From the IMG/VR virus record IMGVR_UViG_2585427969_000016: a DNA stretch of 36,412 bases. The stretch is one strand, 5' to 3'. The stretch comes from a virus. Lineage: Duplodnaviria; Heunggongvirae; Uroviricota; Caudoviricetes. Positions 1,315-36,412 of this stretch are shown here, one piece after another. The notes beneath the pieces are model-generated. The model was not told the DNA's origin. It did no database searches and worked only from the letters and a program-made list of their open reading frames with translations. Each line of letters starts with the position of its first letter. Positions within the stretch are counted from its first letter, which is position 1. A program made the position numbers and the translations under genes.

Positions 1315-1632
1315 ATGAAAAAGATAGCTGCTATATCATTAATTAGTGTTTTTCTTATGTCTGGGTGTGCTGTACATAATGATGAGACAAGTATCGGTAA
1401 ATTTGGTCTTGCATATAAAAGTAATATTCAGCGTAAACTCGATAACCAATACTACACCGAAGCCGAAGCTTCTTTAGCCAGGGGCAGAATTTCTGGTGCA
1501 GAAAATATAGTAAAAAATGATGCAGCTCATTTCTGTGTTACTCAGGGCAAAAAAATGCAGATAGTTGACCTGAAGACAGAAGGTGCAGGATTACATGGCG
1601 TCGCTCGTCTGACATTCAAATGTGGAGAGTGA
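1315..1632 (+). CDS. yegR: Small putative lipoprotein (host gene); 105 aa from the internal ATG of the 125-aa ORF
   Basis: MKK start followed by hydrophobic signal peptide and LMSGC lipobox-like cysteine; position next to yegS matches the recalled E. coli yegR. Confidence 0.6.
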   Translation: MKKIAAISLISVFLMSGCAVHNDETSIGKFGLAYKSNIQRKLDNQYYTEAEASLARGRISGAENIVKNDAAHFCVTQGKKMQIVDLKTEGAGLHGVARLTFKCGE

Positions 1633-1789
1633 GAATATTTTTTGGTAAGCGTCAAACATGCGCGTTCTGGTTGTGCGTAGCCGGAATCTGTACGAGCACG
1701 ATGCCGTTACGTGAAAGGCATCGTGTTATGAAGGGGGATTCTATCGATGTGGTCAATGGAAGACGGTGACCAGGATACGGCTTATGCAT

Positions 1790-1816
1790 AAAAAATAAGC
1801 CCGTGTAAGGGAGATT
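1790..1816. repeat. attL core: 27-bp direct repeat AAAAAATAAGCCCGTGTAAGGGAGATT, identical to attR
   Basis: Exact 27-nt identity with 34880..34906; lies immediately outside the 3' end of the integrase gene. Confidence 0.85.
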
Positions 1817-1895
1817 TAGGGTGTCACCAGTAGGGGCTTTCAACGGTACAATGCGGGTTTGAGCGGCATAAATTACCACTGAAAGCCCTTAAACG

Positions 1896-2909
1896 TTACT
1901 CTACTGTGGACACTGTGTGGACACTCTCGGCCTCAGTACCACCTCTTAGCGGATTAAGAGAAATGGCGTCCTGAAGGTACTCTGGCGCAAAATGAGCGTA
2001 AACCATAGTTTGCTCAATCCGCGTGTGACCTAGTATCCGTTGTAGCGTGATAATACTTCCTCCATTAATCATGAAATGAGTGGCAAAGCTGTGCCTTAGT
2101 GCATGTGTGGCTTGCCCCATTGGCAAATCCGGTTTTATTGCTTTCATTGTTCGTCTGAAGCGAGGGTAATCAGCATCAGGGAATAAAAAACCTCGTTTGT
2201 TATCCGCGATCATTTTGGCAACAGCCTCTGAAATCGGGACGGTGCGTGGTTTGTTTGTTTTCGTTTTAACAAACGTGACGCGGTTATGGATGATATTTTC
2301 TGCTTTCAAACGAGCTGCTTCTCCCCAACGTGCTCCTGTACTCAGGCAAAGAATCGCAATCTTTTTATTGTCGCCGTCAAGTGCTGCAAGCAGTAAGGCA
2401 ATTTCTTCCTGTGTGAGATAGCCTGTTTCTGGTTTTTCCTCCTTAAGCCTCTTTGTCCCTCTGATAGGGTGCTCACCAAAGAATAACTCCGCTTCAATCA
2501 GGGCTGTAAACATGCCGCTAATACATGTTAAATCACGATTGATACTCGAAGGTTTAATACCCTGACTTCTTCGGGTGGCGCAGTACTGGCTGATAAGGGA
2601 TTTCGTGATTTGAAATGCGCATGGGTCATTCGTTATTTTTGTGAAGATTTCAATTTTTCCAAGATTAGATTTCCCATGATCTTCGTGTTTACCCTTTAAA
2701 TCCCACCAGATCTGTGTCAGTTCCGACAGACGTCGTTTGTCTGTTGGTTTTGATAGCCATTCTTTATTGTGGTGGTTGTACAACGTGTATTTTTCGAAAG
2801 CGACAGCTTCGCTTTTCTTATCAAACTTCCTACGGATGCGTTTTCCGTTACGTCCAGTAGGGCGGATGTCCACTTCATATCGACCATCATCGAGTTTTTT
2901 GATTGCCAT
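1896..2909 (-). CDS. int: Tyrosine integrase (P2 Int-like, 337 aa)
   Basis: C-terminal R..HxxR..Y tyrosine-recombinase motifs (ALRHSFATH, HTRIEQTMVYAH); 337 aa like P2 Int; adjacent to attL. Confidence 0.95.
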   Translation of the reverse strand: MAIKKLDDGRYEVDIRPTGRNGKRIRRKFDKKSEAVAFEKYTLYNHHNKEWLSKPTDKRRLSELTQIWWDLKGKHEDHGKSNLGKIEIFTKITNDPCAFQITKSLISQYCATRRSQGIKPSSINRDLTCISGMFTALIEAELFFGEHPIRGTKRLKEEKPETGYLTQEEIALLLAALDGDNKKIAILCLSTGARWGEAARLKAENIIHNRVTFVKTKTNKPRTVPISEAVAKMIADNKRGFLFPDADYPRFRRTMKAIKPDLPMGQATHALRHSFATHFMINGGSIITLQRILGHTRIEQTMVYAHFAPEYLQDAISLNPLRGGTEAESVHTVSTVE

Positions 2910-3024
2910 CAGAAAACCCTCCGAGTGGTACTTTTTTTTGCTACTACTAATCGCTTTTTTCGTGGTGGCTGAAATTTAGCCACCAATAGTAGGCACTTGT
3001 GATGAATATATTCACGATAAATTG

Positions 3025-3324
3025 TTAACCAGTCTTTTGACCGGAGTGGGGCGACGTTGTTTCGTTTTGCCCAAAGTGTGCGAGAGCGGGCGCAATTTGC
3101 CCGGCTTCTGGAGCTACCTGATCAGTCATGAACCACAAAGTATATTTAGTAAATCTAGGATGTTGTAAGACCTTCATTATGGCTTCAACTCCAGCGTTTT
3201 TTGACCGGCTCTCATAGCTCGAAAGTGAGCTGTAGGCTACACCAGTTAATTCACTGAATTCTTTACGGTTTAACCTTTCAGATTCACGGATTAGCTTCAA
3301 CTTCTCCGAAACGTCTATTGACAT
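3025..3324 (-). CDS. C: Immunity repressor C (99 aa from internal ATG; the ORF extends to 3396)
   Basis: Divergent from cox; C-terminal half (FTKYTLWFMT..QIAPALAHFGQNETTSPHSGQKTG) matches recalled P2 C, N-terminal DNA-binding half differs, suggesting a different immunity specificity. Confidence 0.8.
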   Translation of the reverse strand: MSIDVSEKLKLIRESERLNRKEFSELTGVAYSSLSSYESRSKNAGVEAIMKVLQHPRFTKYTLWFMTDQVAPEAGQIAPALAHFGQNETTSPHSGQKTG

Positions 3325-3401
3325 AATTACTCCGATTGCGTAATTTCTTGCTGATAGTGTGAAATGTTGTGCTTCTGGAGTTATCCTTTTAGGCAATAAT
3401 T

Positions 3402-3420
3402 AGCCATTAGGAGCCATTAG
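3402..3420. promoter_or_regulatory. Tandem direct repeat AGCCATTAG-G-AGCCATTAG in the C/cox switch region; candidate operator or Cox-box
   Basis: Two 9-bp copies spaced 10 bp centre to centre, 25 bp upstream of the cox start; P2-type repressors bind direct repeats. Confidence 0.35.
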
Positions 3421-3445
3421 AAGCACTAAGGGAGAATCGTAGCAG

Positions 3446-3721
3446 ATGAATAGACAGCTTGTAAGCGTGACTGATGCCGTGCCTTATCAGGAGTTTGCAA
3501 AACTCATTGGTAAAACTCCAAGAGCTGTAAGGGGCATGATTGAGAAAGGGAAATTACCAGTTATTGAGATTACTGACCCTCAGTCAGTATCGGGGCGTGC
3601 TGGTGAATATTGGGTATACCTTCCGGCATGGAATAACGGACTAAAACTGGCTTATGAAAGCCGTCCTAAAGAGATTCGTGACGGCTGGTTGATGTGGTTA
3701 GGTCTCGGTGAACCACGTTAA
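3446..3721 (+). CDS. cox: Cox (excisionase / early-promoter repressor, 91 aa)
   Basis: 91 aa like P2 Cox with conserved DAVPYQEFAKLIGK..GKLPVI..GRAGEYWVYLPAWNNGLKLAYESRPKEIRDGWLMWLGLGEPR. Confidence 0.92.
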   Translation: MNRQLVSVTDAVPYQEFAKLIGKTPRAVRGMIEKGKLPVIEITDPQSVSGRAGEYWVYLPAWNNGLKLAYESRPKEIRDGWLMWLGLGEPR

Positions 3722-8240: not shown

Positions 8241-8432
8241 ATGGAGTGGATTACACATATCATCACTTTCTTTGTCGGACTGGGAGCGGGTTGGTCGATT
8301 CGTGTCGTGTTTTCATCTAGAAAGCAAATTGGTAATTCCAGCGTGAACTCAAACAATCATACAGTTACTCAAACTGGTAACAGTGTTACAAATGGAAGTA
8401 TTGTTGGCGGTAATCAGGATAGGTCACATTAA
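8241..8432 (+). CDS. Cargo gene 1: small membrane protein (N-terminal TM helix, Asn/Ser/Thr/Gly-rich tail)
   Basis: ATG with AAGGA Shine-Dalgarno; hydrophobic segment ITHIITFFVGLGAGWSIRVVF; low-GC DNA. Confidence 0.55.
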   Translation: MEWITHIITFFVGLGAGWSIRVVFSSRKQIGNSSVNSNNHTVTQTGNSVTNGSIVGGNQDRSH

Positions 8433-8443
8433 GAGGTGTTGGT

Positions 8444-9007
8444 GTGTCTATCGAACAGTCAGGAAATACCGTAACAAATGGCAACATAATTTCTGGTGAT
8501 CAGACTAATCATATATTCAATTATCCTGTTAAAGGAACTAACCGGGAGATACAGAAACTTTATGAGTGTTTGAAGAGAGGTGATATAGGGGAAGCGGTTC
8601 CGGGGTTTTGTGCTGAACTAGAGCATTATATGTCCCTTCAGCCTGATATTGATGTTCGGGGGTTAGACGCTAAATTACTCGAGAGTAATAGAAAAGATTT
8701 GTTGTTTTTAGCTAAGCAGATGAAGGAAAAAGCAACAAAAGCCATAATGCGTCGCCAGACGTCAAAAACTGCACAAAGAATATTTGTAATAATTTTAGAT
8801 CAAATTCATTTTGATTTTATAACGAAAGTAACACCACTTATAGAAGCGGATAGCTCCAGAGTGATTGTTGATGAGAAAATCGCTTCAATAATTGATGAAT
8901 TATATTCGTCTTTGGGAGAGAACTTGCTAGAGCTAACAGCAAAAGATCTCTTGGGATTACTATTTTTTCTGGGTGGCAATTGCCATATAAGGTGGGATAA
9001 ATGCTAA
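8444..9007 (+). CDS. Cargo gene 2: helical protein of unknown function (GTG start), possible effector/coupling component
   Basis: GTG start 5 nt after strong AAGAGGTG Shine-Dalgarno; N-terminus repeats the GN(S/T)VTNG motif of gene 1; stop overlaps the gene 3 start. Confidence 0.6.
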   Translation: MSIEQSGNTVTNGNIISGDQTNHIFNYPVKGTNREIQKLYECLKRGDIGEAVPGFCAELEHYMSLQPDIDVRGLDAKLLESNRKDLLFLAKQMKEKATKAIMRRQTSKTAQRIFVIILDQIHFDFITKVTPLIEADSSRVIVDEKIASIIDELYSSLGENLLELTAKDLLGLLFFLGGNCHIRWDKC

Positions 9008-9501
9008 TTTACCATCCAGCATATGATGCATATCATTGTTTATTCAGAATGATTGCTCTTATAGACCATGTAAATGAAATTGAGGTAGATAAGGCCAGGA
9101 TTTTGGACTTCTATCTGCTATTTCCTGCTTTGGTATCTGAAATTAGAATGCCTCATAATTATTCTTCAATGAAGAAAGAAGCGAAGAAGTATTCTAATAT
9201 ATATCGGGATCCTATTAATGTTAGATCTACATTCAGAGATATGTATGAAATTCAAATGGCAGCAATAAGATGTCTTGCAGCTACTGGGTTGGTTGAGATG
9301 GATTGTCTTGAGAAAAACATTATAAAGAGAACAGATAAGTCTGTTCCAGATGGCTTATTACTTTCTATTAATAATTTTATTAATACGAATAAAATTATTA
9401 ATACATTTATCATAGATACACTATCTAAATTCCATTTGGTTGGAAAAGATGGTTTAAAAGATAGAACGAAGTTAATGGAGTTTAGATATGACTATTCTTA
9501 A
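9001..9501 (+). CDS. Cargo gene 3: small helical protein, candidate middle component
   Basis: AGGTGG Shine-Dalgarno; 7-nt overlap with gene 2 and 14-nt overlap with gene 4 (translational coupling). Confidence 0.6.
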   Translation: MLIYHPAYDAYHCLFRMIALIDHVNEIEVDKARILDFYLLFPALVSEIRMPHNYSSMKKEAKKYSNIYRDPINVRSTFRDMYEIQMAAIRCLAATGLVEMDCLEKNIIKRTDKSVPDGLLLSINNFINTNKIINTFIIDTLSKFHLVGKDGLKDRTKLMEFRYDYS

Positions 9502-11425
9502 TCCATCTTTTTTTGTTAGTAAATTAAAAGTTTTCCAAGCTGGGCATGAAGCATTTAGCTGTGTTTTCCATAAAGGGGTAAATGTAATAAGGGGGCGAAA
9601 TAGCTCTGGCAAAACTACTGTTATGGATCTTTTAGCATTTTCACTTGGTGCTGAAAATATTAGCTTGAAACCAACAGCTCTTTTATGTTCATTTACCATG
9701 GTTGAAGTGCTTTTGAATAATAATCTTGCCTGTTTTAAGCGGGAGATAAGTTCAGAATCCATGCGGCCGTTGAGTATTTTTTGGGGCTCGATGGATAAAG
9801 CTCTTAACTCATCACCGAGTCAGTGGCAAACTTATCCTTTTAAGCGTTCAGAAAAATCACTGAGTTTTTCTCAGGTAATCCTAAATGCTTTGGATATGCC
9901 TCTAGCTCAAGGAGAGGGTGCTTCAATTTTAACAATGCATCAAATCCTACGTGTATTATATGCAGATCAGCCATCTCTTCATAGTCCTATATTTAGGAAC
10001 GATAATTTTGATAGAGCTCTAACACGAGAGACTATTGGTGATTATTTATGTGGTATATTTGATGACAAACTTTATAGCTCTTTGATTAGGCTTAAACAGG
10101 TTGATGCTGAACTTTCGACAAAAATTGTTGAGCTGAAAAGCATATTTAAAGTTCTTGGACGCTCTGGGCAATCGCAGCATGTAAGTTTTATTGACGATAA
10201 AATAAAAGAGCTAAGAGAGAAGAAAGAAAAGATCAATGGAGAGCTTATCTCTCTCAAAGAGAGTAATAACTCTTCTGTTAATGATAAAAATGCTGATAAA
10301 ACTAAAACTAACAACCTTCGAAAAAATTTAAATAAAGCGAAGGAAGAAGAAGTAAAAAATATTGACAGTATCCATATGTTAGAAATGGAGATAGCTGACT
10401 CTGAAATGTTCATTAATGAGTTAGAATCCAGATTGCGCTCTCTTAATGAATCAAGTATTGCCAGAGACTATTTTAGCAACGTTAAATTTCAATTTTGTCC
10501 CAGTTGTTTAAGTGAGTTGAATATTTCCTCTGAAAATGAGTGCTCATTATGTAAAAATCACGCGCCAGAGGGTAGTGATGCTCCTCAATTATTAAGGATG
10601 AAAAATGAGATTTCTATCCAATTAAAAGAATCCAGAGATCTTCTTGAGCATAATTATGTAAAACTGAGAGAGCTTAAGAGCCAATCTCCTGCTTTAAAGC
10701 AAAAAGTGCGAGATTTAATTCGTGAATATGAAGAAGTCTCTAAGGTTTGGGAAAATGCCTATGAAATAGAGTTTGAAACTCTTACTAAGGCTCTGGGACG
10801 TGTTGAAGAAGAAATTAAACAGGCTTGTGAATTACAAAAACTTAGTGATGTAATATCTGATTTGCAAAAAGATCGTGATAGTCTGCAGTCAGAGAAGGAG
10901 AGATTGTCCTCTTTAATTGAATCTTTGGAGAGTAAAGAGGAATATAGGAAGAAGGATATTTCTAAAACTATAGAAAACATTATGAAAAGACTTCTTAAAA
11001 AAGATCTTCCATTGCAGACTGAATTTATTGATCCTAGAAAAGTTAATTTTAGCTTTGCCGATAATACTGTTTATGTAAATGGGTCTAAGTATTTTTCAGA
11101 AAGTTCAGCAGTTGTATTAAGACATCTCTTTCATTTAGCATTGTTAACTGCAAGTATTGAAAAAAAATACATGAGATTACCTCGTTTCCTAATGCTTGAT
11201 GGAATTGACGATGGTGGAATGGAGAAAGAGCGCAGTCACAATCTGCAGAAAATAATAGTACAAGAAACTCAATCGTATCAATATGATTTTCAAATAATTT
11301 ATGCGACATCGGAGATTAATCCAGAATATGAAAATACCGATTTGATTGTTGGTCGATATTTTAATCCAGATGATAAATCATTAAAGATAAATTATACCGC
11401 TCTTGATAAAGATTTATTGAACTAA
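9488..11425 (+). CDS. Cargo gene 4: SMC/Rad50-like ABC ATPase with coiled-coil insert and CxxC..CxxC hook
   Basis: Walker A GRNSSGKTT near N-terminus; Walker B/D-loop FLMLDGIDDGG near C-terminus; about 300 aa of K/E/L-rich heptad-like sequence between them with CPSC..CSLC at residues 337-355. Confidence 0.8.
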   Translation: MTILNPSFFVSKLKVFQAGHEAFSCVFHKGVNVIRGRNSSGKTTVMDLLAFSLGAENISLKPTALLCSFTMVEVLLNNNLACFKREISSESMRPLSIFWGSMDKALNSSPSQWQTYPFKRSEKSLSFSQVILNALDMPLAQGEGASILTMHQILRVLYADQPSLHSPIFRNDNFDRALTRETIGDYLCGIFDDKLYSSLIRLKQVDAELSTKIVELKSIFKVLGRSGQSQHVSFIDDKIKELREKKEKINGELISLKESNNSSVNDKNADKTKTNNLRKNLNKAKEEEVKNIDSIHMLEMEIADSEMFINELESRLRSLNESSIARDYFSNVKFQFCPSCLSELNISSENECSLCKNHAPEGSDAPQLLRMKNEISIQLKESRDLLEHNYVKLRELKSQSPALKQKVRDLIREYEEVSKVWENAYEIEFETLTKALGRVEEEIKQACELQKLSDVISDLQKDRDSLQSEKERLSSLIESLESKEEYRKKDISKTIENIMKRLLKKDLPLQTEFIDPRKVNFSFADNTVYVNGSKYFSESSAVVLRHLFHLALLTASIEKKYMRLPRFLMLDGIDDGGMEKERSHNLQKIIVQETQSYQYDFQIIYATSEINPEYENTDLIVGRYFNPDDKSLKINYTALDKDLLN

Positions 11426-11558: not shown

Positions 11559-11577
11559 GGCGAGGCGGGGAAAGCAC
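11559..11577. other. cos cohesive-end site (GGCGAGGCGGGGAAAGCAC)
   Basis: Matches the recalled 19-nt P2 cohesive end; located between the post-A variable region and Q as in P2. Confidence 0.7.
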
Positions 11578-20476: not shown

Positions 20477-20927
20477 GTTTAAGCGTTTTGAAGACCGGCT
20501 GACCGGACTTATTGAATCGCTGTCACCGTCAGGGCGTCGGCGACTGGCGATAGATATTGCGAAGAAACTGCGCCAGCGCCAGCAGCAGCGAATTAAATTA
20601 CAAAAAGGCCCGGATGGTACGCCGTATGTACCGAGAAAAAAACAGCCAGTGCGAAATAAGAAAGGGCGGATAAAGCGGGAAATGTTTGCGAAATTACGCA
20701 CAAACCGATTTATGAAAGCAACAGGTAGCGAGAGTGCGGCTGTGGTGGAGTTTGCCAGCGGAGTACAACGAATTGCGAGAGTACATCAATTAGGGCTTAG
20801 GGATAAGCCGGGGCGTAATAGTGCTGTGGTGGAATATCCTGTTCGTGAGTTATTAGGTTTTGACAAGGAATCTATACAATTGATAGAAAAGGAGTTATTA
20901 GTGATTCTATCGAAAGATGTTATATGA
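20469..20927 (+). CDS. S: Tail completion protein S; its last codons run into the AT-rich cargo island
   Basis: Synteny and length as P2 gpS. Confidence 0.85.
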   Translation: MNEFKRFEDRLTGLIESLSPSGRRRLAIDIAKKLRQRQQQRIKLQKGPDGTPYVPRKKQPVRNKKGRIKREMFAKLRTNRFMKATGSESAAVVEFASGVQRIARVHQLGLRDKPGRNSAVVEYPVRELLGFDKESIQLIEKELLVILSKDVI

Positions 20928-21445
20928 GATGGGTGTTTGTGGATAAAAAGTTTTCCATTTTGAGAAAAAGAGTAAAGCATTCTCAAAAGAAAGTTATGGA
21001 TTGTATTATTGCTGACCATAATGCTGATGTATGTGTGTTATGCGGGAGTTCTGACGATATTACTCGTGAGCACATTATTCCTCAGTGGGCCTTTGAGTCA
21101 AATGCTGAAAAACTTTTAATTAATAAAAAGAATAATCAGTCAACTCATTACATCAAAGCCACTGTACCAGCATGCAGAGTGTGCAATTCTGATTTGCTGG
21201 GAGCGTTTGAGTATAACCTGAAGAAATTTCTTACGGAAAAGAGGGGCGATGAGTTAACAGATTATGAATATGATTGCATCATATGGTGGTTGCAATACAT
21301 GGGCTTTAAGTTGCAATTAATGGATTTACGGACCCGCTTTCTCAGGTATAAAGGGGGGATTATATCCCTTTCCTTGCAAACTTCCCGGTTGCAATGTTTT
21401 GGGGGAATGTCGATACGACACCGGAGGATGTCTCCAGGATTATAA
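20924..21445 (+). CDS. Cargo HNH-family endonuclease (P2 orf30 position); probably frame-disrupted at a G6 run (21353..21358)
   Basis: HNH motif CVLCG..TREHIIPQW..CRVCN; ATGA overlap with the S stop; AT-rich; ORF tail after the G-run looks non-native. Confidence 0.65.
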   Translation: MRWVFVDKKFSILRKRVKHSQKKVMDCIIADHNADVCVLCGSSDDITREHIIPQWAFESNAEKLLINKKNNQSTHYIKATVPACRVCNSDLLGAFEYNLKKFLTEKRGDELTDYEYDCIIWWLQYMGFKLQLMDLRTRFLRYKGGIISLSLQTSRLQCFGGMSIRHRRMSPGL

Positions 21446-21678
21446 GAAAATCGCGACGCAATCTGATGTCGAAATGGAAGGATAAAAAACATAATTCTCT
21501 GATGGTTTTTGAAACATCAAACAAGAGTTTTCATTTCTTTCATAAGGTTGATGAATTTATTTTTATTGAAATGCCTCAGGTTAAGAAGGCGTTTTTCTTC
21601 TTTTTTAATAAAGAATTTGACAGCCATGATTTAGCTCATGAGGAGTGTATGAAGATTATAGAGAAGTGCTACAACTAA
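21394..21678 (+). CDS. Small ORF in the next frame; probably the displaced C-terminal part of the HNH gene
   Basis: Open frame begins right after the G6 run at 21352 and continues to 21678. Confidence 0.4.
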   Translation: MFWGNVDTTPEDVSRIIRKSRRNLMSKWKDKKHNSLMVFETSNKSFHFFHKVDEFIFIEMPQVKKAFFFFFNKEFDSHDLAHEECMKIIEKCYN

Positions 21679-21687
21679 TATTTATTA

Positions 21688-21705
21688 TGTTGTGTCACGG
21701 CTGAC
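21688..21705. promoter_or_regulatory. TGTTGTGTCA motif plus dyad TGTCA-CGGC-TGACA upstream of V; candidate late promoter P_V element
   Basis: Motif shared with the P/O and FI upstream regions; sits at the AT-rich to GC-rich boundary. Confidence 0.35.
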
Positions 21706-21755
21706 AGAGTCCTCCATGATTGCTGCTGGTATCGTCCGGCGGCATCCTTCCCGTC

Positions 21756-24181: not shown

Positions 24182-26500
24182 ATGAGCACAAAATTCAGAA
24201 CCGTTATCACCACTGCCGGTGCAGCAAAGCTGGCAGCGGCAACCGCGCCGGGAGGGCGGAAGGTCAACATTACCACGATGGCCGTAGGGGATGGCGGTGG
24301 TAAATTGCCTGTCCCGGATGCCGGACAGACCGGACTTATTCACGAAGTCTGGCGACATACGCTGAACAAAATCAGCCAGGACAAACGAAACAGTAATTAT
24401 ATTATCGCAGAGCTGGTTATTCCGCCGGAGGTGGGCGGTTTCTGGATGCGTGAGCTTGGCCTGTACGATGATGCGGGAACGTTAATTGCCGTGGCGAACA
24501 TGGCCGAAAGTTATAAGCCAGCTCTTGCCGAAGGCTCAGGGCGTTCGCAGACCTGTCGCATGGTCATCATCGTCAGCAGTGTGGCCTCAGTGGCGCTGAC
24601 CATTGACACCACAACGGTGATGGCGACGCAGGATTACGTTGATGACAAAATTGCAGAGCATGAACAGTCACGACGTCACCCGGACGCCTCGCTGACCGCA
24701 AAAGGTTTTACTCAGTTAAGCAATGCGACCAACAGCACGTCTGAAACACTGGCCGCAACGCCGAAAGCGGTTAAGGCCGCATATGACCTGGCTAACGGGA
24801 AATACACTGCGCAGGATGCCACCACAGCGCGAAAAGGCCTTGTCCAGCTCAGTAGCGCCACCAACAGCACGTCTGAAACGCTCGCCGCAACACCAAAAGC
24901 GGTAAAGGCAGCATATGACCTTGCTAACGGGAAATACACTGCACAGGACGCCACCACAGCGCGAAAAGGTCTTGTCCAGCTCAGTAGCGCCACCAACAGC
25001 GATTCTGAAACGCTTGCCGCAACGCCAAAGGCGGTTAAGACAGCGTATGACCTTGCTAACGGGAAATACACTGCACAGGATGCCACCACAGCGCGAAAAG
25101 GTCTTGTCCAGCTCAGTAGCGCCACCAACAGTGATTCTGAAACGCTTGCCGCAACACCAAAAGCGGTGAAGTCTGCCTATGACAATGCTGAAAAACGTCT
25201 TCAGAAAGATCAGAACGGTGCGGATATTCCGGGAAAGGATACCTTCACGAAAAATATCGGTGCCTGTCGTGCTTATAGCGGCGCTTTGAGCACTGAAGCC
25301 GGAAACTGGACAACCGCTCAGTTTATTGAATGGCTGGATTCCCGTGGTGCATTTAATCATCCGTACTGGATGTGCAAAGGCTCCTGGTCATATGCAAATA
25401 ACAAAATCATTACGGATACCGGATGTGGTGATATCAACCTGGCTGGTTGTGTCGTCGAGGTCATGGGAACAAAATCTGCAATCACTATCCGAGTGACCAC
25501 GCCGACAACATCAAGCGGTGGCGGTACAACCAGCGCGCAATTCACTTACATTAATCATGGGGACGGCTACTCCCCCGGCTGGCGTCGTGACTGGAATCGT
25601 CAGGGCGACTCAATGACCGGAACGATTAATCAGGATGGCGGAAGCCAGAATGCCTATATGTCTACGGCCTTATGTTCAGGCACCAGAGGCGGCAAAAAAT
25701 ATCTCAGAAAGTTTCGTGGTGGAGAAGGAGATACTATCTGGCATGAAACAGTACAGGGCGAGGTAATTCGCTGGGCGACAGGTAATACTGATGCTCGGGA
25801 AGAATTATCACTCAGCTCTGTTTATGGTCTTCGTTCAAGAGGTGAAATTACATCGCTCAGTGCTAATGGTCTGCGCGTTGCTTATGGCAATTATGGATTC
25901 TTTATCAGGAATGATGGCGGCAGCACATATTTAATGCTGACGGCCTCTGGCGATAAATTTGGGACATGGAACGGCTTAAGACCGCTGACTATCAATAACG
26001 CCAATGGCGGAGTGTCAATGGGGCATGGCCTGAGTGTTACAGGTGATATTGTCTCAAGTACCAAAGTACGTGCCGGTAGCGGGAAAAAGTTCACGGTCAG
26101 CAGCAGCAATACATCCACGAAGGAAGCCGCATTCAATTTGTGGGGAAACTCAAGTCGTCCTGTGGTGGCTGAATTAGGTGATGATGCAGGCTGGCATTTT
26201 TACAGTCAGAGAAATACAGATAACAGCATCACTTTTGCTGTTAACGGTCAGGTATCACCATCTAACTATGGCAACTTTGATTCACGCTATGTCCGGGATA
26301 TCCGGCTTGGTGGTGCTGCCACATACAAACCTGCGAACAATGGCATGACATGGACACATCAGGCACCGTCCGGGTGTGTATATTCTGGCATTATTGTTCA
26401 GGATACCGGCTCAAACTCTGCCGATAACATTGGTGGCGTATATTACAGACCGGTGCAGAAATACATTAACGGGACATGGTATAACGTGGCACAGGTATAA
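24182..26500 (+). CDS. H: Tail fibre protein H (772 aa) with conserved N-terminus, four internal 44-aa repeats and a variable C-terminal receptor-binding part
   Basis: N-terminus MSTKFRTVITTAGAAKLAAATAPG as recalled for P2 gpH; about 100 aa longer than P2 H. Confidence 0.92.
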   Translation: MSTKFRTVITTAGAAKLAAATAPGGRKVNITTMAVGDGGGKLPVPDAGQTGLIHEVWRHTLNKISQDKRNSNYIIAELVIPPEVGGFWMRELGLYDDAGTLIAVANMAESYKPALAEGSGRSQTCRMVIIVSSVASVALTIDTTTVMATQDYVDDKIAEHEQSRRHPDASLTAKGFTQLSNATNSTSETLAATPKAVKAAYDLANGKYTAQDATTARKGLVQLSSATNSTSETLAATPKAVKAAYDLANGKYTAQDATTARKGLVQLSSATNSDSETLAATPKAVKTAYDLANGKYTAQDATTARKGLVQLSSATNSDSETLAATPKAVKSAYDNAEKRLQKDQNGADIPGKDTFTKNIGACRAYSGALSTEAGNWTTAQFIEWLDSRGAFNHPYWMCKGSWSYANNKIITDTGCGDINLAGCVVEVMGTKSAITIRVTTPTTSSGGGTTSAQFTYINHGDGYSPGWRRDWNRQGDSMTGTINQDGGSQNAYMSTALCSGTRGGKKYLRKFRGGEGDTIWHETVQGEVIRWATGNTDAREELSLSSVYGLRSRGEITSLSANGLRVAYGNYGFFIRNDGGSTYLMLTASGDKFGTWNGLRPLTINNANGGVSMGHGLSVTGDIVSSTKVRAGSGKKFTVSSSNTSTKEAAFNLWGNSSRPVVAELGDDAGWHFYSQRNTDNSITFAVNGQVSPSNYGNFDSRYVRDIRLGGAATYKPANNGMTWTHQAPSGCVYSGIIVQDTGSNSADNIGGVYYRPVQKYINGTWYNVAQV
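24701..25228 (+). repeat. Four tandem 132-bp (44-codon) repeats inside H, each encoding ..KGLVQLSSATNS(T/D)SETLAATPKAVKAAYDLANGKYTAQDATTAR
   Basis: Period of 132 nt read directly from the sequence, with a few synonymous and missense differences between copies. Confidence 0.9.
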
Positions 26501-27252: not shown

Positions 27253-27846
27253 ATGTTTACTAAGCGACGATTAAAAAATATTAACTGGGAGGCAAGTTCA
27301 GTGATTCTTGCTATGGTTCTCTTTGTTGGAAATATATTTTATACAAATCATCGTGATGATATAAGCATGGAGGCTGAGAGGGACAGTATCAGAACAATGT
27401 TTGCATATGAAATCGCTAATAACCATCGCGCTCTCACTTTTCTTGATAAAACGAGACATATTGGCTTTGACGAAAATTCGGAGCATTTTGTTGGCGAGCC
27501 TTTTGCCATTAATGTCAAATCATTAGGGGGGCCTCGCTTACAGATTGCATTAAACCAGACTGATAAAGTGTTTAAATCCTACTTCAGCGAATTAAGTAAG
27601 CTTGATAAAGAGGATGTTACTCTTCTTATGGACTATTACCATGAGCAAAGCATCCTGCTGGAGCGTGTAAAATCTACGTTACAGAAGATGAAAAGTGGTA
27701 ATGATATTAAAGTTGATATTGATGGTTACTTATTAGAAGAACACTTCATGAATGAGCTTAATCTTTCTAATATTTTGCTTAAACGCTATAGCCATTTGTT
27801 GTCACAACACGCTAAAGAACATAAAACAAAAGATTTACATAATTGA
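27253..27846 (+). CDS. Cargo gene at the P2 Z/fun position: 197-aa protein with one N-terminal TM helix and a helical cytoplasmic domain; function unknown
   Basis: AAGGTG Shine-Dalgarno; hydrophobic SSVILAMVLFVGNIFY; AT-rich island between G and FI. Confidence 0.65.
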   Translation: MFTKRRLKNINWEASSVILAMVLFVGNIFYTNHRDDISMEAERDSIRTMFAYEIANNHRALTFLDKTRHIGFDENSEHFVGEPFAINVKSLGGPRLQIALNQTDKVFKSYFSELSKLDKEDVTLLMDYYHEQSILLERVKSTLQKMKSGNDIKVDIDGYLLEEHFMNELNLSNILLKRYSHLLSQHAKEHKTKDLHN

Positions 27847-33315: not shown

Positions 33316-34478
33316 TGCTGGATGCGCTGACATTTGATGCAGGCAGTACGCTGACGCCGGATTACATGCTGATGCTCGACAGCAGGGATATTACCGGCAA
33401 TATCAGCGACCGTCTGATGAGCATGACCCTGACGGATAACCGGGGCTTTGAGGCTGACCAGCTTGATATTGAACTGAACGACGCCGACGGGCAGGTAGGG
33501 CTACCGGTTCGTGGCGCTGTCCTGACGGTGTATATCGGCTGGAAAGGTTTTGCCCTGGTATGCAAAGGGAAATTTACCGTTGATGAGGTTGAACACCGGG
33601 GCGCACCGGATGTGGTCACCATCCGCGCCCGGAGTGCAGATTTTCGCGGGACGCTCAATTCCCGCCGGGAAGGCTCCTGGCATGACACCACGCTCGGTGC
33701 GATTGTTGAGGCGATAGCCACCCGTAACAGGCTGGAATCCAGTGTCGCTCCGTCACTGGCCGGAATAAAAATTTCACACATCGACCAGTCGCAGGAGTCT
33801 GATGCGAAATTCCTGACCCGTCTTGCAGAACGCAACGGCGGTGAGGTGTCGGTAAAAATGGGAAAACTGTTGTTTCTCAAAGCGGGGCAGGGAGTGACGG
33901 CCAGCGGTAAAAAAATCCCGCAGGTCACCATAACCCGCAGCGACGGCGACCGCCATCATTTTGCGATTGCTGACCGTGGAGCCTACACCGGTGTAACGGC
34001 AAAATGGCTACACACTAAAGACCCGAAGCCGCAAAAGCAGAAGGTAAAACTGAAACGCAAAAAGAAAGAGAAACACCTGCGCGCACTGGAGCACCCGAAA
34101 GCGAAACCGGTCAGGCAGAAGAAAGCGCCTAAAGTACCGGAAGCGCGTGAAGGTGAATACATGGCCGGTGAGGCTGACAACGTTTTTGCACTGACCACGG
34201 TATATGCCACGAAAGCGCAGGCCATGCGCGCCGCTCAGGCGAAGTGGGACAAACTGCAACGGGGCGTCGCGGAGTTTTCCATCAGCCTGGCTACCGGTCG
34301 GGCTGATATTTACACGGAAACACCGGTTAAAGTGTCAGGCTTTAAGCGCGTCATAGACGAGCAGGACTGGACAATCACTAAGGTGACACATTTTCTGAAT
34401 AATAGCGGCTTCACGACGTCCTTAGAGCTTGAGGTCAGGCTTTCTGATGTGGAGTACGAAACAGAAGATGATGAGTGA
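33315..34478 (+). CDS. D: Tail protein D (387 aa)
   Basis: Synteny and length. Confidence 0.92.
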   Translation: MLDALTFDAGSTLTPDYMLMLDSRDITGNISDRLMSMTLTDNRGFEADQLDIELNDADGQVGLPVRGAVLTVYIGWKGFALVCKGKFTVDEVEHRGAPDVVTIRARSADFRGTLNSRREGSWHDTTLGAIVEAIATRNRLESSVAPSLAGIKISHIDQSQESDAKFLTRLAERNGGEVSVKMGKLLFLKAGQGVTASGKKIPQVTITRSDGDRHHFAIADRGAYTGVTAKWLHTKDPKPQKQKVKLKRKKKEKHLRALEHPKAKPVRQKKAPKVPEAREGEYMAGEADNVFALTTVYATKAQAMRAAQAKWDKLQRGVAEFSISLATGRADIYTETPVKVSGFKRVIDEQDWTITKVTHFLNNSGFTTSLELEVRLSDVEYETEDDE

Positions 34479-34559
34479 TGTAATTTATTTATCTGTTTGT
34501 TTTGTAAGGATAAATTAACTAAAATGGCACCATCAACAAAACCGGAAGAGGTGCTCGCG

Positions 34560-34778
34560 ATGTTTCATTGTCCTTTATGCCAGCATGCCGCACATGCGCG
34601 TACAAGTCGCTATATCACTGACACGACAAAAGAGCGTTATCACCAGTGTCAGAACGTGAATTGCAGCGCCACGTTCATCACCTATGAGTCGGTACAGCGA
34701 TACATCGTGAAGCCGGGAGAAGTCCACGCCGTAAGGCCACACCCGTTGCCGTCAGGGCAGCAAATTATGTGGATGTAA
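34560..34778 (+). CDS. ogr: Ogr late-gene transcription activator (72 aa C4 zinc finger); the listed ORF starts earlier at 34497
   Basis: MFHCPLCQHAAHARTSRYITDTTKERYHQCQNVNCSATF.. matches recalled P2 Ogr; GGAAGAGG Shine-Dalgarno before the internal ATG. Confidence 0.9.
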   Translation: MFHCPLCQHAAHARTSRYITDTTKERYHQCQNVNCSATFITYESVQRYIVKPGEVHAVRPHPLPSGQQIMWM

Positions 34779-34790
34779 TTACAAACAGAA

Positions 34791-34816
34791 AGCCCCTCAG
34801 TCGAGGGGCTTTTTTG
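34791..34816 (+). terminator. Rho-independent terminator after ogr (AGCCCCTC-AGTC-GAGGGGCT followed by TTTTTT)
   Basis: 8-bp GC stem and T6 tail read from sequence. Confidence 0.8.
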
Positions 34817-34879
34817 TCGATGTGGTCAATGTGTGGACGTGACCAGAAATAAATCCTTTTATTTCATTGTATTACGCGT

Positions 34880-34906
34880 AAAAAATAAGCCCGTGTAAGG
34901 GAGATT
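34880..34906. repeat. attR core: 27-bp direct repeat identical to attL; also the 3' terminator hairpin of cyaR
   Basis: Exact identity with 1790..1816. Confidence 0.85.
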
Positions 34907-34966
34907 ACACAGGCTAAGGAGGTGGTTCCTGGTACAGCTAGCATTTTATGGGTTATGTTTTTCAGC
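34880..34966 (-). ncRNA. cyaR: CyaR (RyeE) Hfq-dependent sRNA; its 3' end is the phage attachment core
   Basis: Reverse complement reads GCUGAAAAACAUAACCCAUAAAAUGCUAGCUGUACCAGGAACCACCUCCUUAGCCUGUGUAAUCUCCCUUACACGGGCUUAUUUUUU, matching my recollection of E. coli CyaR, with an intrinsic terminator at the 3' end. Confidence 0.8.
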
Positions 34967-35003
34967 GAAACGGATGATAACCTTAATAAATGCAGCTGTA
35001 TGT

Positions 35004-35025
35004 GATCGGTTTCTAAGAATTTTCC
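35004..35025 (-). promoter_or_regulatory. Candidate CRP site in the cyaR promoter region (one consensus TGTGA half-site)
   Basis: TGTGATCGGTTTCTAA about 40-60 bp upstream of the cyaR 5' end; cyaR is known to be cAMP-CRP activated. Confidence 0.4.
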
Positions 35026-35050
35026 ATCCGGGAAAAATAATCGAAATTAA

Positions 35051-36412
35051 TCACTTACCGTGGGGGTTACGCGTGGTTTCCCCGGAGAAATTACGCATCA
35101 GGAGCGCGTAATTTAGCTCAAGATCCTGCGGGACCGGGAGCCACACAGTATAACCATCGCCTGGTGCGACCGGCATAGCTTCACCTTTGGCGTTTTCCAT
35201 GTGCTCAAGGGTAAAGTTAATGTTGCCTTGCGGCGTCATCAGCTCAAGGCTGTCACCAACGGAGAATTTATTTTTCACCGCTACCGCCGCGAGGTCGCCC
35301 TTGCGCTCACCGGTAAACTCACCAACAAACTGCTGGCGGTCAGAAACTGAATAACCGTATTCGTAGTTCTGATAATCGTCGTGAGTATGACGACGCAGGA
35401 AACCTTCGGTATAGCCACGATGCGCCAGACCTTCCAGAGTTTCCAGCAGGCTGGTATCGAATGGTTTTCCCGCAGCTGCGTCATCGATAGCTTTACGGTA
35501 AACCTGCGCGGTGCGTGCGCAATAGTAGAAAGATTTGGTACGGCCTTCGATTTTCAGCGAATGCACTCCCATTTTGGTCAGGCGTTCTACATGGGCGATG
35601 GCGCGCAGATCTTTCGAGTTCATGATGTAAGTGCCGTGCTCATCTTCAAACGCGGTCATATACTCGCCCGGACGCTGGGCCTCTTCGATCATAAACACTT
35701 TGTCGGTTGGTGCGCCGATACCCAGCGTCGGCTCAACATTTTGCACCGGAATCGGCTCGTACTTGTGTACGATGTTGCCAACGTCATCTTCTTTCCCTTC
35801 CTGGACGTTGTATTCCCAGCGGCAGGCGTTGGTGCAGGTGCCCTGGTTCGGGTCGCGCTTGTTGATATAGCCAGAGAGCAGGCAGCGACCGGAGTAGGCC
35901 ATGCACAGCGCGCCGTGAACGAAGATCTCTACCTCCATATCCGGCACCTGATTGCGGATCTCTTCAATCTCTTCCAGCGACAGCTCGCGAGAGAGGATCA
36001 CGCGGGTCAGGCCCATTTGCTGCCAGAATTTCACCGTCGCCCAGTTCACGGCGTTAGCCTGTACCGAGAGATGGATCGGCATTTCAGGGAAGTGCTCACG
36101 CACCAGCATAATCAGCCCTGGATCGGACATAATCAGCGCATCCGGCCCCATTTCCACCACCGGTTTCAGGTCACGGATAAAGGTTTTCAGCTTGGCGTTG
36201 TGCGGTGCAATGTTGACCACGACATAAAACTTTTTCCCCAGCGCGTGGGCTTCATTGATGCCGAGCTGGAGATTTTCGTGGTTAAATTCGTTGTTGCGCA
36301 CACGCAGGGAGTAACGCGGCTGGCCCGCATAAACAGCATCTGCGCCATAAGCGAAAGCGTAACGCATATTTTTCAGCGTTCCCGCCGGGGAAAGGAGTTC
36401 CGGTTTAAACAT
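35051..36412 (-). CDS. yegQ: U32-family peptidase-like protein YegQ (TrhP, tRNA hydroxylation), complete; start codon at the window edge
   Basis: 453-aa ORF; length and sequence match my recollection of E. coli YegQ. Confidence 0.88.
   Translation of the reverse strand: MFKPELLSPAGTLKNMRYAFAYGADAVYAGQPRYSLRVRNNEFNHENLQLGINEAHALGKKFYVVVNIAPHNAKLKTFIRDLKPVVEMGPDALIMSDPGLIMLVREHFPEMPIHLSVQANAVNWATVKFWQQMGLTRVILSRELSLEEIEEIRNQVPDMEVEIFVHGALCMAYSGRCLLSGYINKRDPNQGTCTNACRWEYNVQEGKEDDVGNIVHKYEPIPVQNVEPTLGIGAPTDKVFMIEEAQRPGEYMTAFEDEHGTYIMNSKDLRAIAHVERLTKMGVHSLKIEGRTKSFYYCARTAQVYRKAIDDAAAGKPFDTSLLETLEGLAHRGYTEGFLRRHTHDDYQNYEYGYSVSDRQQFVGEFTGERKGDLAAVAVKNKFSVGDSLELMTPQGNINFTLEHMENAKGEAMPVAPGDGYTVWLPVPQDLELNYALLMRNFSGETTRNPHGK

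Follow-up and report, generated by a model that had tools for sequence, protein, structure and literature searches.

The window analyzed here, a stretch of DNA that is 36,412 nucleotides long at its full length, carries what we judge with about 95% probability to be a complete temperate Peduovirus phage, integrated by its Int protein at a site whose recombination core is the last 27 nt of the gene for the small RNA CyaR. We take this site to be locI, the primary P2 attB of E. coli, which is the site preferred in E. coli C. The Haggard-Ljungquist laboratory (Yu, Bertani, Barreiro, 1989-1992) is said to have identified locI and its 27-nt core. P2 at the cyaR site is already known and common, and this is the canonical attachment site of the phage.

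Comparison with P2 (AF063097) by blastn and tblastn delimits a P2-type (Peduovirus) prophage body at positions 1817-34879, with a core-to-core unit of 33,090 bp. All essential P2 genes are present and collinear by tblastn, in the order Q, P, O, N, M, L, X, Y, K, R, S, V, W, J, I, H, G, FI, FII, E, T, U, D, ogr, int, C, cox, B and A, and both lysA and lysB are also found in their P2 order. The 30-odd essential genes are full length, and no frameshifts are revealed by tblastn. Also, a 19-nt cohesive-end sequence at 11559-11577 is identical to that of P2 (cosL). An earlier reading of this DNA, made from the sequence only, had described the element as complete, and the essential gene content together with the cos site bears this out. 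The features shared with P2 therefore include the gene order and cos as well as the 27-bp core and the attP architecture, in which a P arm, an IHF site, the core, Cox sites and a P' arm follow one another. Most essential P2 proteins have counterparts in the element that are 93-100% identical, the exceptions being S, C, G, Cox and H. Among the most conserved products are a 337-aa tyrosine integrase with Pfam Int_N and Phage_integrase matches (int, 1896-2909, minus strand), which is 99.7% identical to P2 Int, and the 72-aa late-gene activator Ogr (34560-34778, plus strand), which is 100% identical to its P2 counterpart. The values for gpS and gpG are 56.7% and 73.7%, respectively, and H can be aligned to P2 over its N-terminal 251 aa only. 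The closest public relatives reach 72-73% coverage at 96-97% identity.

Compared with P2, the element has a diverged C and Cox immunity region, a diverged H C-terminus and a diverged gpG, and other cargo stands in the place of the nonessential P2 genes old, tin, orf91, orf30 and fun(Z). The C repressor gene (3025-3324, minus strand; HTH_3 match) is divergent from cox and encodes a protein 64.6% identical to P2 C. The cox gene (3446-3721, plus strand) encodes the excision directionality factor and Pc repressor, with 83.5% identity to P2 Cox. The immunity and excision switch as a whole (3025-3721) is not that of P2, as there is no nucleotide match over 3155-3467. P2 itself is classically noninducible. 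Despite the 83.5% identity of Cox, the Cox-binding region of attP (1833-1906) remains ~98% P2-like, and the present Cox is assumed, from these sequences, to be compatible with its predicted attP sites.

The cargo regions deserve a brief description in their own right. The slot occupied by old and tin in P2 (8241-11425) contains an ABC-three-component (Lamassu-like) system that consists of a CTD9 protein (8444-9007; PF20285), an MC5 middle component (9001-9501; PF20291) and an SMC-like ATPase (9488-11425; PADLOC LmuB, 4.5e-47). Just upstream of the CTD9 ORF is a 63-aa ORF (8241-8432) with a hydrophobic N-terminus and the terminal motif GNSVTNGSIVGGNQ, which recurs in a different frame at the start of the CTD9 ORF, and the two ORFs could represent a split or frameshifted effector. 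This three-component region is found with at least 80% query coverage in 19 of 5426 E. coli genomes, with 100% identity in the eight matches listed. In the P2 fun(Z) slot, a region of 34% G+C contains a 197-aa ORF (27253-27846, plus strand) with a hydrophobic N-terminal segment; this ORF has no Pfam or PADLOC match and is a candidate for an uncharacterized lysogenic-conversion or defense gene. The P2 orf30 slot (20694-21754) is filled by AT-rich replacement DNA (39% G+C) with a 173-aa ORF at 20924-21445, whose similarity to HNH and endonuclease I proteins is weak (E ~ 0.004), and a 94-aa ORF at 21394-21678. The tail-fiber gene H (24182-26500) includes three tandem 132-nt units at 24700-25189 that are 85-87% identical, and its protein is 772 aa long versus 669 aa in P2.

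The two ends of the prophage carry an exact direct repeat of 28 bp, TAAAAAATAAGCCCGTGTAAGGGAGATT, at 1789-1816 and 34879-34906. Within this repeat, positions 1790-1816 and 34880-34906 correspond to the annotated 27-bp attP core of P2 (AF063097, 24356-24382), and thus the proposal that an identical 27-bp att core lies at both prophage ends is well founded. A 43-nt query, in which the core was extended into the cyaR stem, produced one match only, at the right end, which indicates that the repeat ends at the core. By the lambda/P2 convention, the int-proximal left junction is attL (B-O-P') and the ogr-proximal right junction is attR (P-O-B'), in agreement with the labels used in the sequence-only reading. 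The attR core (34880-34906, with exact identity reaching 34879) constitutes the last 27 nt of cyaR, and the attL core (1790-1816, with exact identity reaching 1789) is an orphan fragment of the cyaR 3' end that lacks the 5' stem arm.

The sites expected around a P2 core are also in place. The segment at 1789-3154 aligns without gaps to P2 24355-25720, and on this basis the P' side of attP (1833-1930) can be assigned a Cox-binding region at 1833-1906 and Int P' arm sites at 1904-1930 (P2 24399-24472 and 24470-24496, respectively). The P side (34789-34881) was assigned by correspondence to the P2 annotation, to which the attP query aligned without net gaps. It includes the ogr/F-operon terminator (34789-34812; P2 24265-24288), which is also detected by a terminator scan, followed by Int P arm sites (34817-34844; P2 24293-24320) and the IHF site (34848-34881; P2 24324-24357).

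Reconstruction of the parental sites shows that the repeat marks the recombination junctions. The host side of attL carries yegR (1315-1632, plus strand), and the host flank of attR carries yegQ/trhP (35051-36412, minus strand), which lies directly upstream of cyaR. When 1316-1816 is joined to 34907-35400, many E. coli chromosomes contain the resulting 995-nt predicted empty site as one uninterrupted stretch with 100% identity, located between yegR and yegQ (trhP). At least 80% of this query is held in one place by 4565 of the 5426 complete E. coli genomes, a number that includes genomes with short remnants of the K-12 type. Similarly, the predicted attP, formed by joining 34400-34906 to 1817-2300, occurs uninterrupted in P2 (98.5%) and in further Peduovirus genomes at up to 99% (P22H1, 99%), and the alignment spans the P2-annotated ogr terminator, Int P arm, IHF site, core, Cox sites and Int P' arm. 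Because the outer flanks yield attB and the inner ends yield attP, with both sites contiguous in nature, the repeat coincides with the recombination junctions. Comparison with an unoccupied yegR-cyaR-yegQ locus had been suggested as a check on the original proposal, and it joins the flanks at 100% identity with the junctions at the repeat.

CyaR is an Hfq-dependent small RNA with targets such as ompX, and its promoter is CRP-dependent according to the literature. When the whole window was searched by cmscan, the RF00112 (CyaR_RyeE) model matched the minus strand at 34883-34968 over its full length (positions 1-85 of 85) with 100.7 bits, compared with a gathering score of 47, and this is the sole Rfam match above gathering score in the entire window. 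A tRNA/tmRNA scan found no tRNA or tmRNA genes in the window, and an att site within a tRNA was ruled out on this basis. The full-length cyaR (ryeE) gene (RF00112; K-12 b4438) lies at the right prophage junction at 34880-34966 on the minus strand, and these limits, which are also the ones originally proposed, equal the annotated cyaR extents of K-12. The 180 nt from 34876 to 35055, which comprise the promoter, cyaR and 4 nt downstream, are 100% identical to K-12 MG1655, and the 89 nt upstream of cyaR, including the promoter region, are thus K-12 sequence. The claim that attR retains a full-length small RNA gene is therefore secure, since the gene there is base-identical to authentic K-12 cyaR; a CyaR-like sequence failing to match cyaR upon alignment had been named as grounds for abandoning the claim, and complete identity was found. 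The position of cyaR downstream of yegQ/trhP is likewise conserved. The cmscan alignment, the MFE structure and the terminator scan together reveal a small hairpin with a C-rich loop (AGGAACCACCUCCU), and then a Rho-independent terminator with its U-tail.

The relationship between the core and this terminator requires some care. RNA folding and the terminator scan place the intrinsic terminator hairpin of CyaR at 34888-34915 on the minus strand, with an 11-bp stem (34915-34905 pairing with 34898-34888), a 6-nt loop and a U-tail at 34887-34880 that reads UAUUUUUU. The terminator fold has a free energy of -15.9 kcal/mol, and the z-score of -4.4 for a 66-nt segment was equaled by none of 200 shuffles. 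On the RNA strand, the core provides the loop, the 3' arm and the U-tail, as well as two nucleotides (34906-34905) of the 11-nt 5' arm. The other nine nucleotides of that arm (34915-34907) belong to the host flank and not to the core, and so the earlier statement that the core forms the terminator hairpin and U-tail stands for all parts except most of this arm. At the left junction, the terminator scan detected no terminator-like hairpin and the fold z-scores were +0.4 to +0.8; the orphan attL core is without a terminator fold because most of the 5' arm lies outside the core. This result fits the description of attL as carrying only an orphan 27-nt terminator fragment, in that the core copy is present and the hairpin is absent. 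Furthermore, the two cores are identical, and which bases of the cyaR 3' end derive from the phage consequently depends on the positions of strand exchange within the core. For this reason, a "phage-supplied" 3' end, as the sequence-only reading had it, is not readable from sequence alone.

A simple mechanism accounts for this arrangement. The phage attP and the host site have the 27 bp in common, and from what is established for heterobivalent tyrosine integrases, Int together with IHF would exchange strands inside this core, and Cox would direct excision. Since phage and host share the core bases, cyaR remains intact after integration: recombination leaves an unchanged gene (promoter, seed, hairpin and U-tail) at the ogr-proximal attR, and the int-proximal attL receives an orphan, nonfolding copy of the core. 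The change is limited to the DNA past the U-tail, which begins with the host sequence ATGCATAAGCC... in the empty site and with the phage P arm sequence ACGCGTAATAC... in the occupied one. Lysogeny would be expected to leave CyaR expression and 3'-end formation unaffected, and the element is presumably viable.

By analogy, this would be the same strategy as that of phages with integration sites at tRNA or tmRNA 3' ends. A review on P2-like integrases describes the core as equal to attB and notes that RNA genes are preserved by long cores, and it gives as sites at the 3' ends of RNA genes tRNA-Ile for 186, tRNA-Leu for HP1, and ssrA for Fels-2 and SopEphi (PMC3448106). For each of these phages, the core likewise overlaps the 3' end of the RNA gene, and the duplicated segment regenerates the gene. 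In contrast, the target in the present case is the terminator of an Hfq-dependent small RNA rather than a tRNA-like fold, and the core is short (27 bp), covering only the 3' half of the terminator.

Other explanations must be weighed against integration of a complete phage at locI. The notion that the direct repeat arose by coincidence or as the target-site duplication of a transposon, and not as an att core, draws on nothing beyond the mere presence of a direct repeat and has a negligible probability. Chance alone would yield only about 9e-9 exact pairs of 28-mers in a sequence of 36 kb, and a gene for a tyrosine integrase as well as arm, IHF and Cox sites flank the repeat; the contiguity of the reconstructed attB and attP in nature, together with the P2 core annotation, refutes this explanation outright. 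It is very improbable, albeit less so, that integration alters CyaR function by way of a new downstream context that changes termination, Hfq loading or read-through. The sequence immediately after the U-tail does differ between occupied and empty sites, the phage contributes its P arm and an antisense ogr terminator there, and any CyaR read-through transcript would be antisense to ogr. However, the promoter and the entire transcribed RNA, including the hairpin and U-tail, have the K-12 sequence, and K-12 has the same phage-derived sequence downstream of cyaR. CyaR has been functionally characterized in K-12, and this makes a functional effect of the altered context unlikely.

A more serious alternative, which we nonetheless regard as unlikely, is that the prophage has become domesticated or defective and is unable to excise or to form plaques even though its ORFs look intact. 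Decay of prophages at the cyaR site is evidenced by the K-12 remnant, and the divergence of C and Cox next to a P2-like Cox-box region could reflect a mismatch between Cox and its sites. The low identity of gpS and the divergence of the H C-terminus and gpG might likewise speak for a defective element. Against these points stand the full-length essential genes without frameshifts, the P2 cos sequence and the nearly unchanged Int, and mosaic immunity and tail-fiber modules are normal among isolated, viable Peduovirus with 96-97% backbone identity. A complete temperate phage integrated by Int at locI remains by far the favored interpretation, and no feature of the sequence contradicts it.

The K-12 chromosome offers an instructive comparison with this complete prophage. 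Its RefSeq record annotates a "cryptic prophage PR-X" at 2167183-2167811 that overlaps the 3' end of cyaR (2167114-2167200) and encloses ogrK and the yegZ pseudogene, where yegZ is D'. The statement in the sequence-only reading that K-12 has only a degraded ogrK-yegZ remnant at this locus is thereby substantiated. Alignment to K-12 identifies PR-X as a deletion derivative of the present arrangement, with a point inside the attL core (~1807) joined to one inside gene D (~34266). From cyaR across the core and the P arm to ogr, the attR junction of PR-X is base-identical to that of the window, but ~0.63 kb is retained there versus the entire 33-kb prophage here. K-12 (L002, 2804-2830) also retains ~18 nt of the second core (TACACGGGCTTATTTTTT), equivalent to 1789-1807 of the window, beside the D' fragment.

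Other P2-type elements have been recorded at the same gene. Table 2 of the E. coli W paper lists "cyaR RNA" as the insertion site of Wphi2 (P2) in strain W, and the same site is given for ogr-D' in K-12 and for P2*B in E. coli B (REL606) (PMC3032704). Wphi2 and P2*B thus resemble the present element by their listed site, and their cargo and immunity may differ. Among the literature consulted, this table was the sole explicit link found between CyaR and the P2 attachment site (PMC3032704). One article initially considered as a source on CyaR concerns sdsR instead (PMC3333887), and two others contained nothing relevant to a CyaR-P2 link (PMC9765468; PMC11795201). Among the 5426 complete E. coli genomes, the yegR-core-int junction is present in 812 (~15%) and the ogr-core-cyaR junction in 1132, and the surplus of ogr-side over int-side junctions is expected to represent remnants of the K-12 type.

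Use of the cyaR 3' end by P2-type phages extends to other bacteria. A cyaR pattern scan with one genome per species returned at least 120 loci, and the last 27 nt of cyaR match the P2 core exactly in at least five of them (E. coli, one Enterobacter hormaechei and three Kluyvera). Among the loci listed, one to three differences from the P2 core are seen in Klebsiella, Citrobacter, Salmonella and most Enterobacter, and five to eight in Serratia, Pectobacterium and Yersinia. P2-style IHF/P-arm sequence lies directly 3' of cyaR in at least eight loci, including two from Citrobacter youngae (L091 and L116) and others from Citrobacter sp. Awk 4, Enterobacteriaceae bacterium G50, E. albertii, a Buttiauxella MAG, an Enterobacter sp. 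and "Bacterium BS0013". At L116, the genes ogr-D-U-T-E-FII-FI-G are arranged antisense downstream of cyaR with 54-81% amino acid identity to P2, and the G50 locus has ogr-D-U-T downstream of cyaR. Only ogr and fragments of D, P and Q are found at L091, which is therefore a remnant. P2-type cores in these other genera match each host's own terminator variant, and in several genera P2-type phages thus have their att site at the cyaR 3' end. Across genera, the distance from cyaR to yegS ranges from ~130 nt to more than 4 kb among the loci listed.

The site that appears empty in most E. coli might have its own phage history. We lean slightly toward the view that "empty" locI represents the attR of an older P2-type prophage, now a fossil that has decayed to ~0.8 kb and become fixed in the species, with yegR as its surviving cargo. 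In Escherichia sp. E1V33, one Kluyvera and one Klebsiella, yegS begins within ~130-170 nt after cyaR and yegR is absent; in E. coli, the corresponding yegS-proximal flank (901-987 of the window) is shifted ~0.8 kb from cyaR. Abutting this ancestral flank, downstream of cyaR and upstream of yegS, is a decayed copy of the core (988-1014) with 18 matches out of 27, which is read here as the fossil attL. The adjoining sequence at 1019-1043 resembles the P2 P' side (17 of 24 positions identical), a likeness that is weak alone, given that 158 of 2000 shuffles score as well, and that gains its weight only from the matching register relative to the core. A P2-type P-arm relic with an Int arm-type site is located in the "host" flank at 1743-1773, 16 nt from the core, and it includes a 15-nt exact run with P2; none of 2000 shuffles equals its local alignment score. 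When the phage collection was searched for a better donor of this relic, only the core and two records with E. coli flank DNA were matched. The G+C content of yegR and of the intergenic region to its left is 37-39%, versus 50-54% for yegS and yegQ.

The distribution of yegR was also considered. An attB query that includes yegR matched 5424 of the 5426 E. coli genomes, and the segment is thus nearly universal in the species. The YegR protein is almost confined to E. coli and Shigella, with rare distant homologs in an IS-rich island of Enterobacter and at an unrelated chromosomal site. This pattern fits mobile accessory cargo and offers no link to P2. Matches to YegR in the phage collection and in IMG/VR were rejected as evidence for phage cargo, as all of them come from predicted E. 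coli prophages that extend past attL into yegR, and this makes the gene seem phage-encoded. In many such records (among L125-L204 from IMG/VR, ON470606.1 and AY639599.1), yegR and host flank stand at a contig end, a systematic overrun of the prophage boundary at this att site.

A fossil prophage at locI is perhaps the most economical account of these observations, and we hold this by the same slight preference. If it is true, the tandem order would be yegS, decayed core, P'-like relic, yegR, P-arm relic, attL core, prophage, attR core and cyaR. An effect of the surviving arm-type Int site, 16 nt away from attB, on the efficiency with which P2 uses locI is much less likely than the existence of the fossil prophage itself.

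The prophage described here leaves the understanding of P2 and of CyaR unchanged, and it serves as a worked example of a phage that attaches at the 3' end of a small RNA gene with the gene undamaged. PGAP records carry no cyaR annotation, and the overlap between gene and prophage is therefore invisible in most genomes. There is also a practical use for annotation, in that IMG/VR prophage calls at the cyaR site overrun into yegR. Taken together, the nested fossil and the P2-type prophages that follow cyaR in genera such as Citrobacter suggest that Enterobacteriaceae have long had an integration hotspot between cyaR and yegS, which may be of interest for the evolution of att sites.
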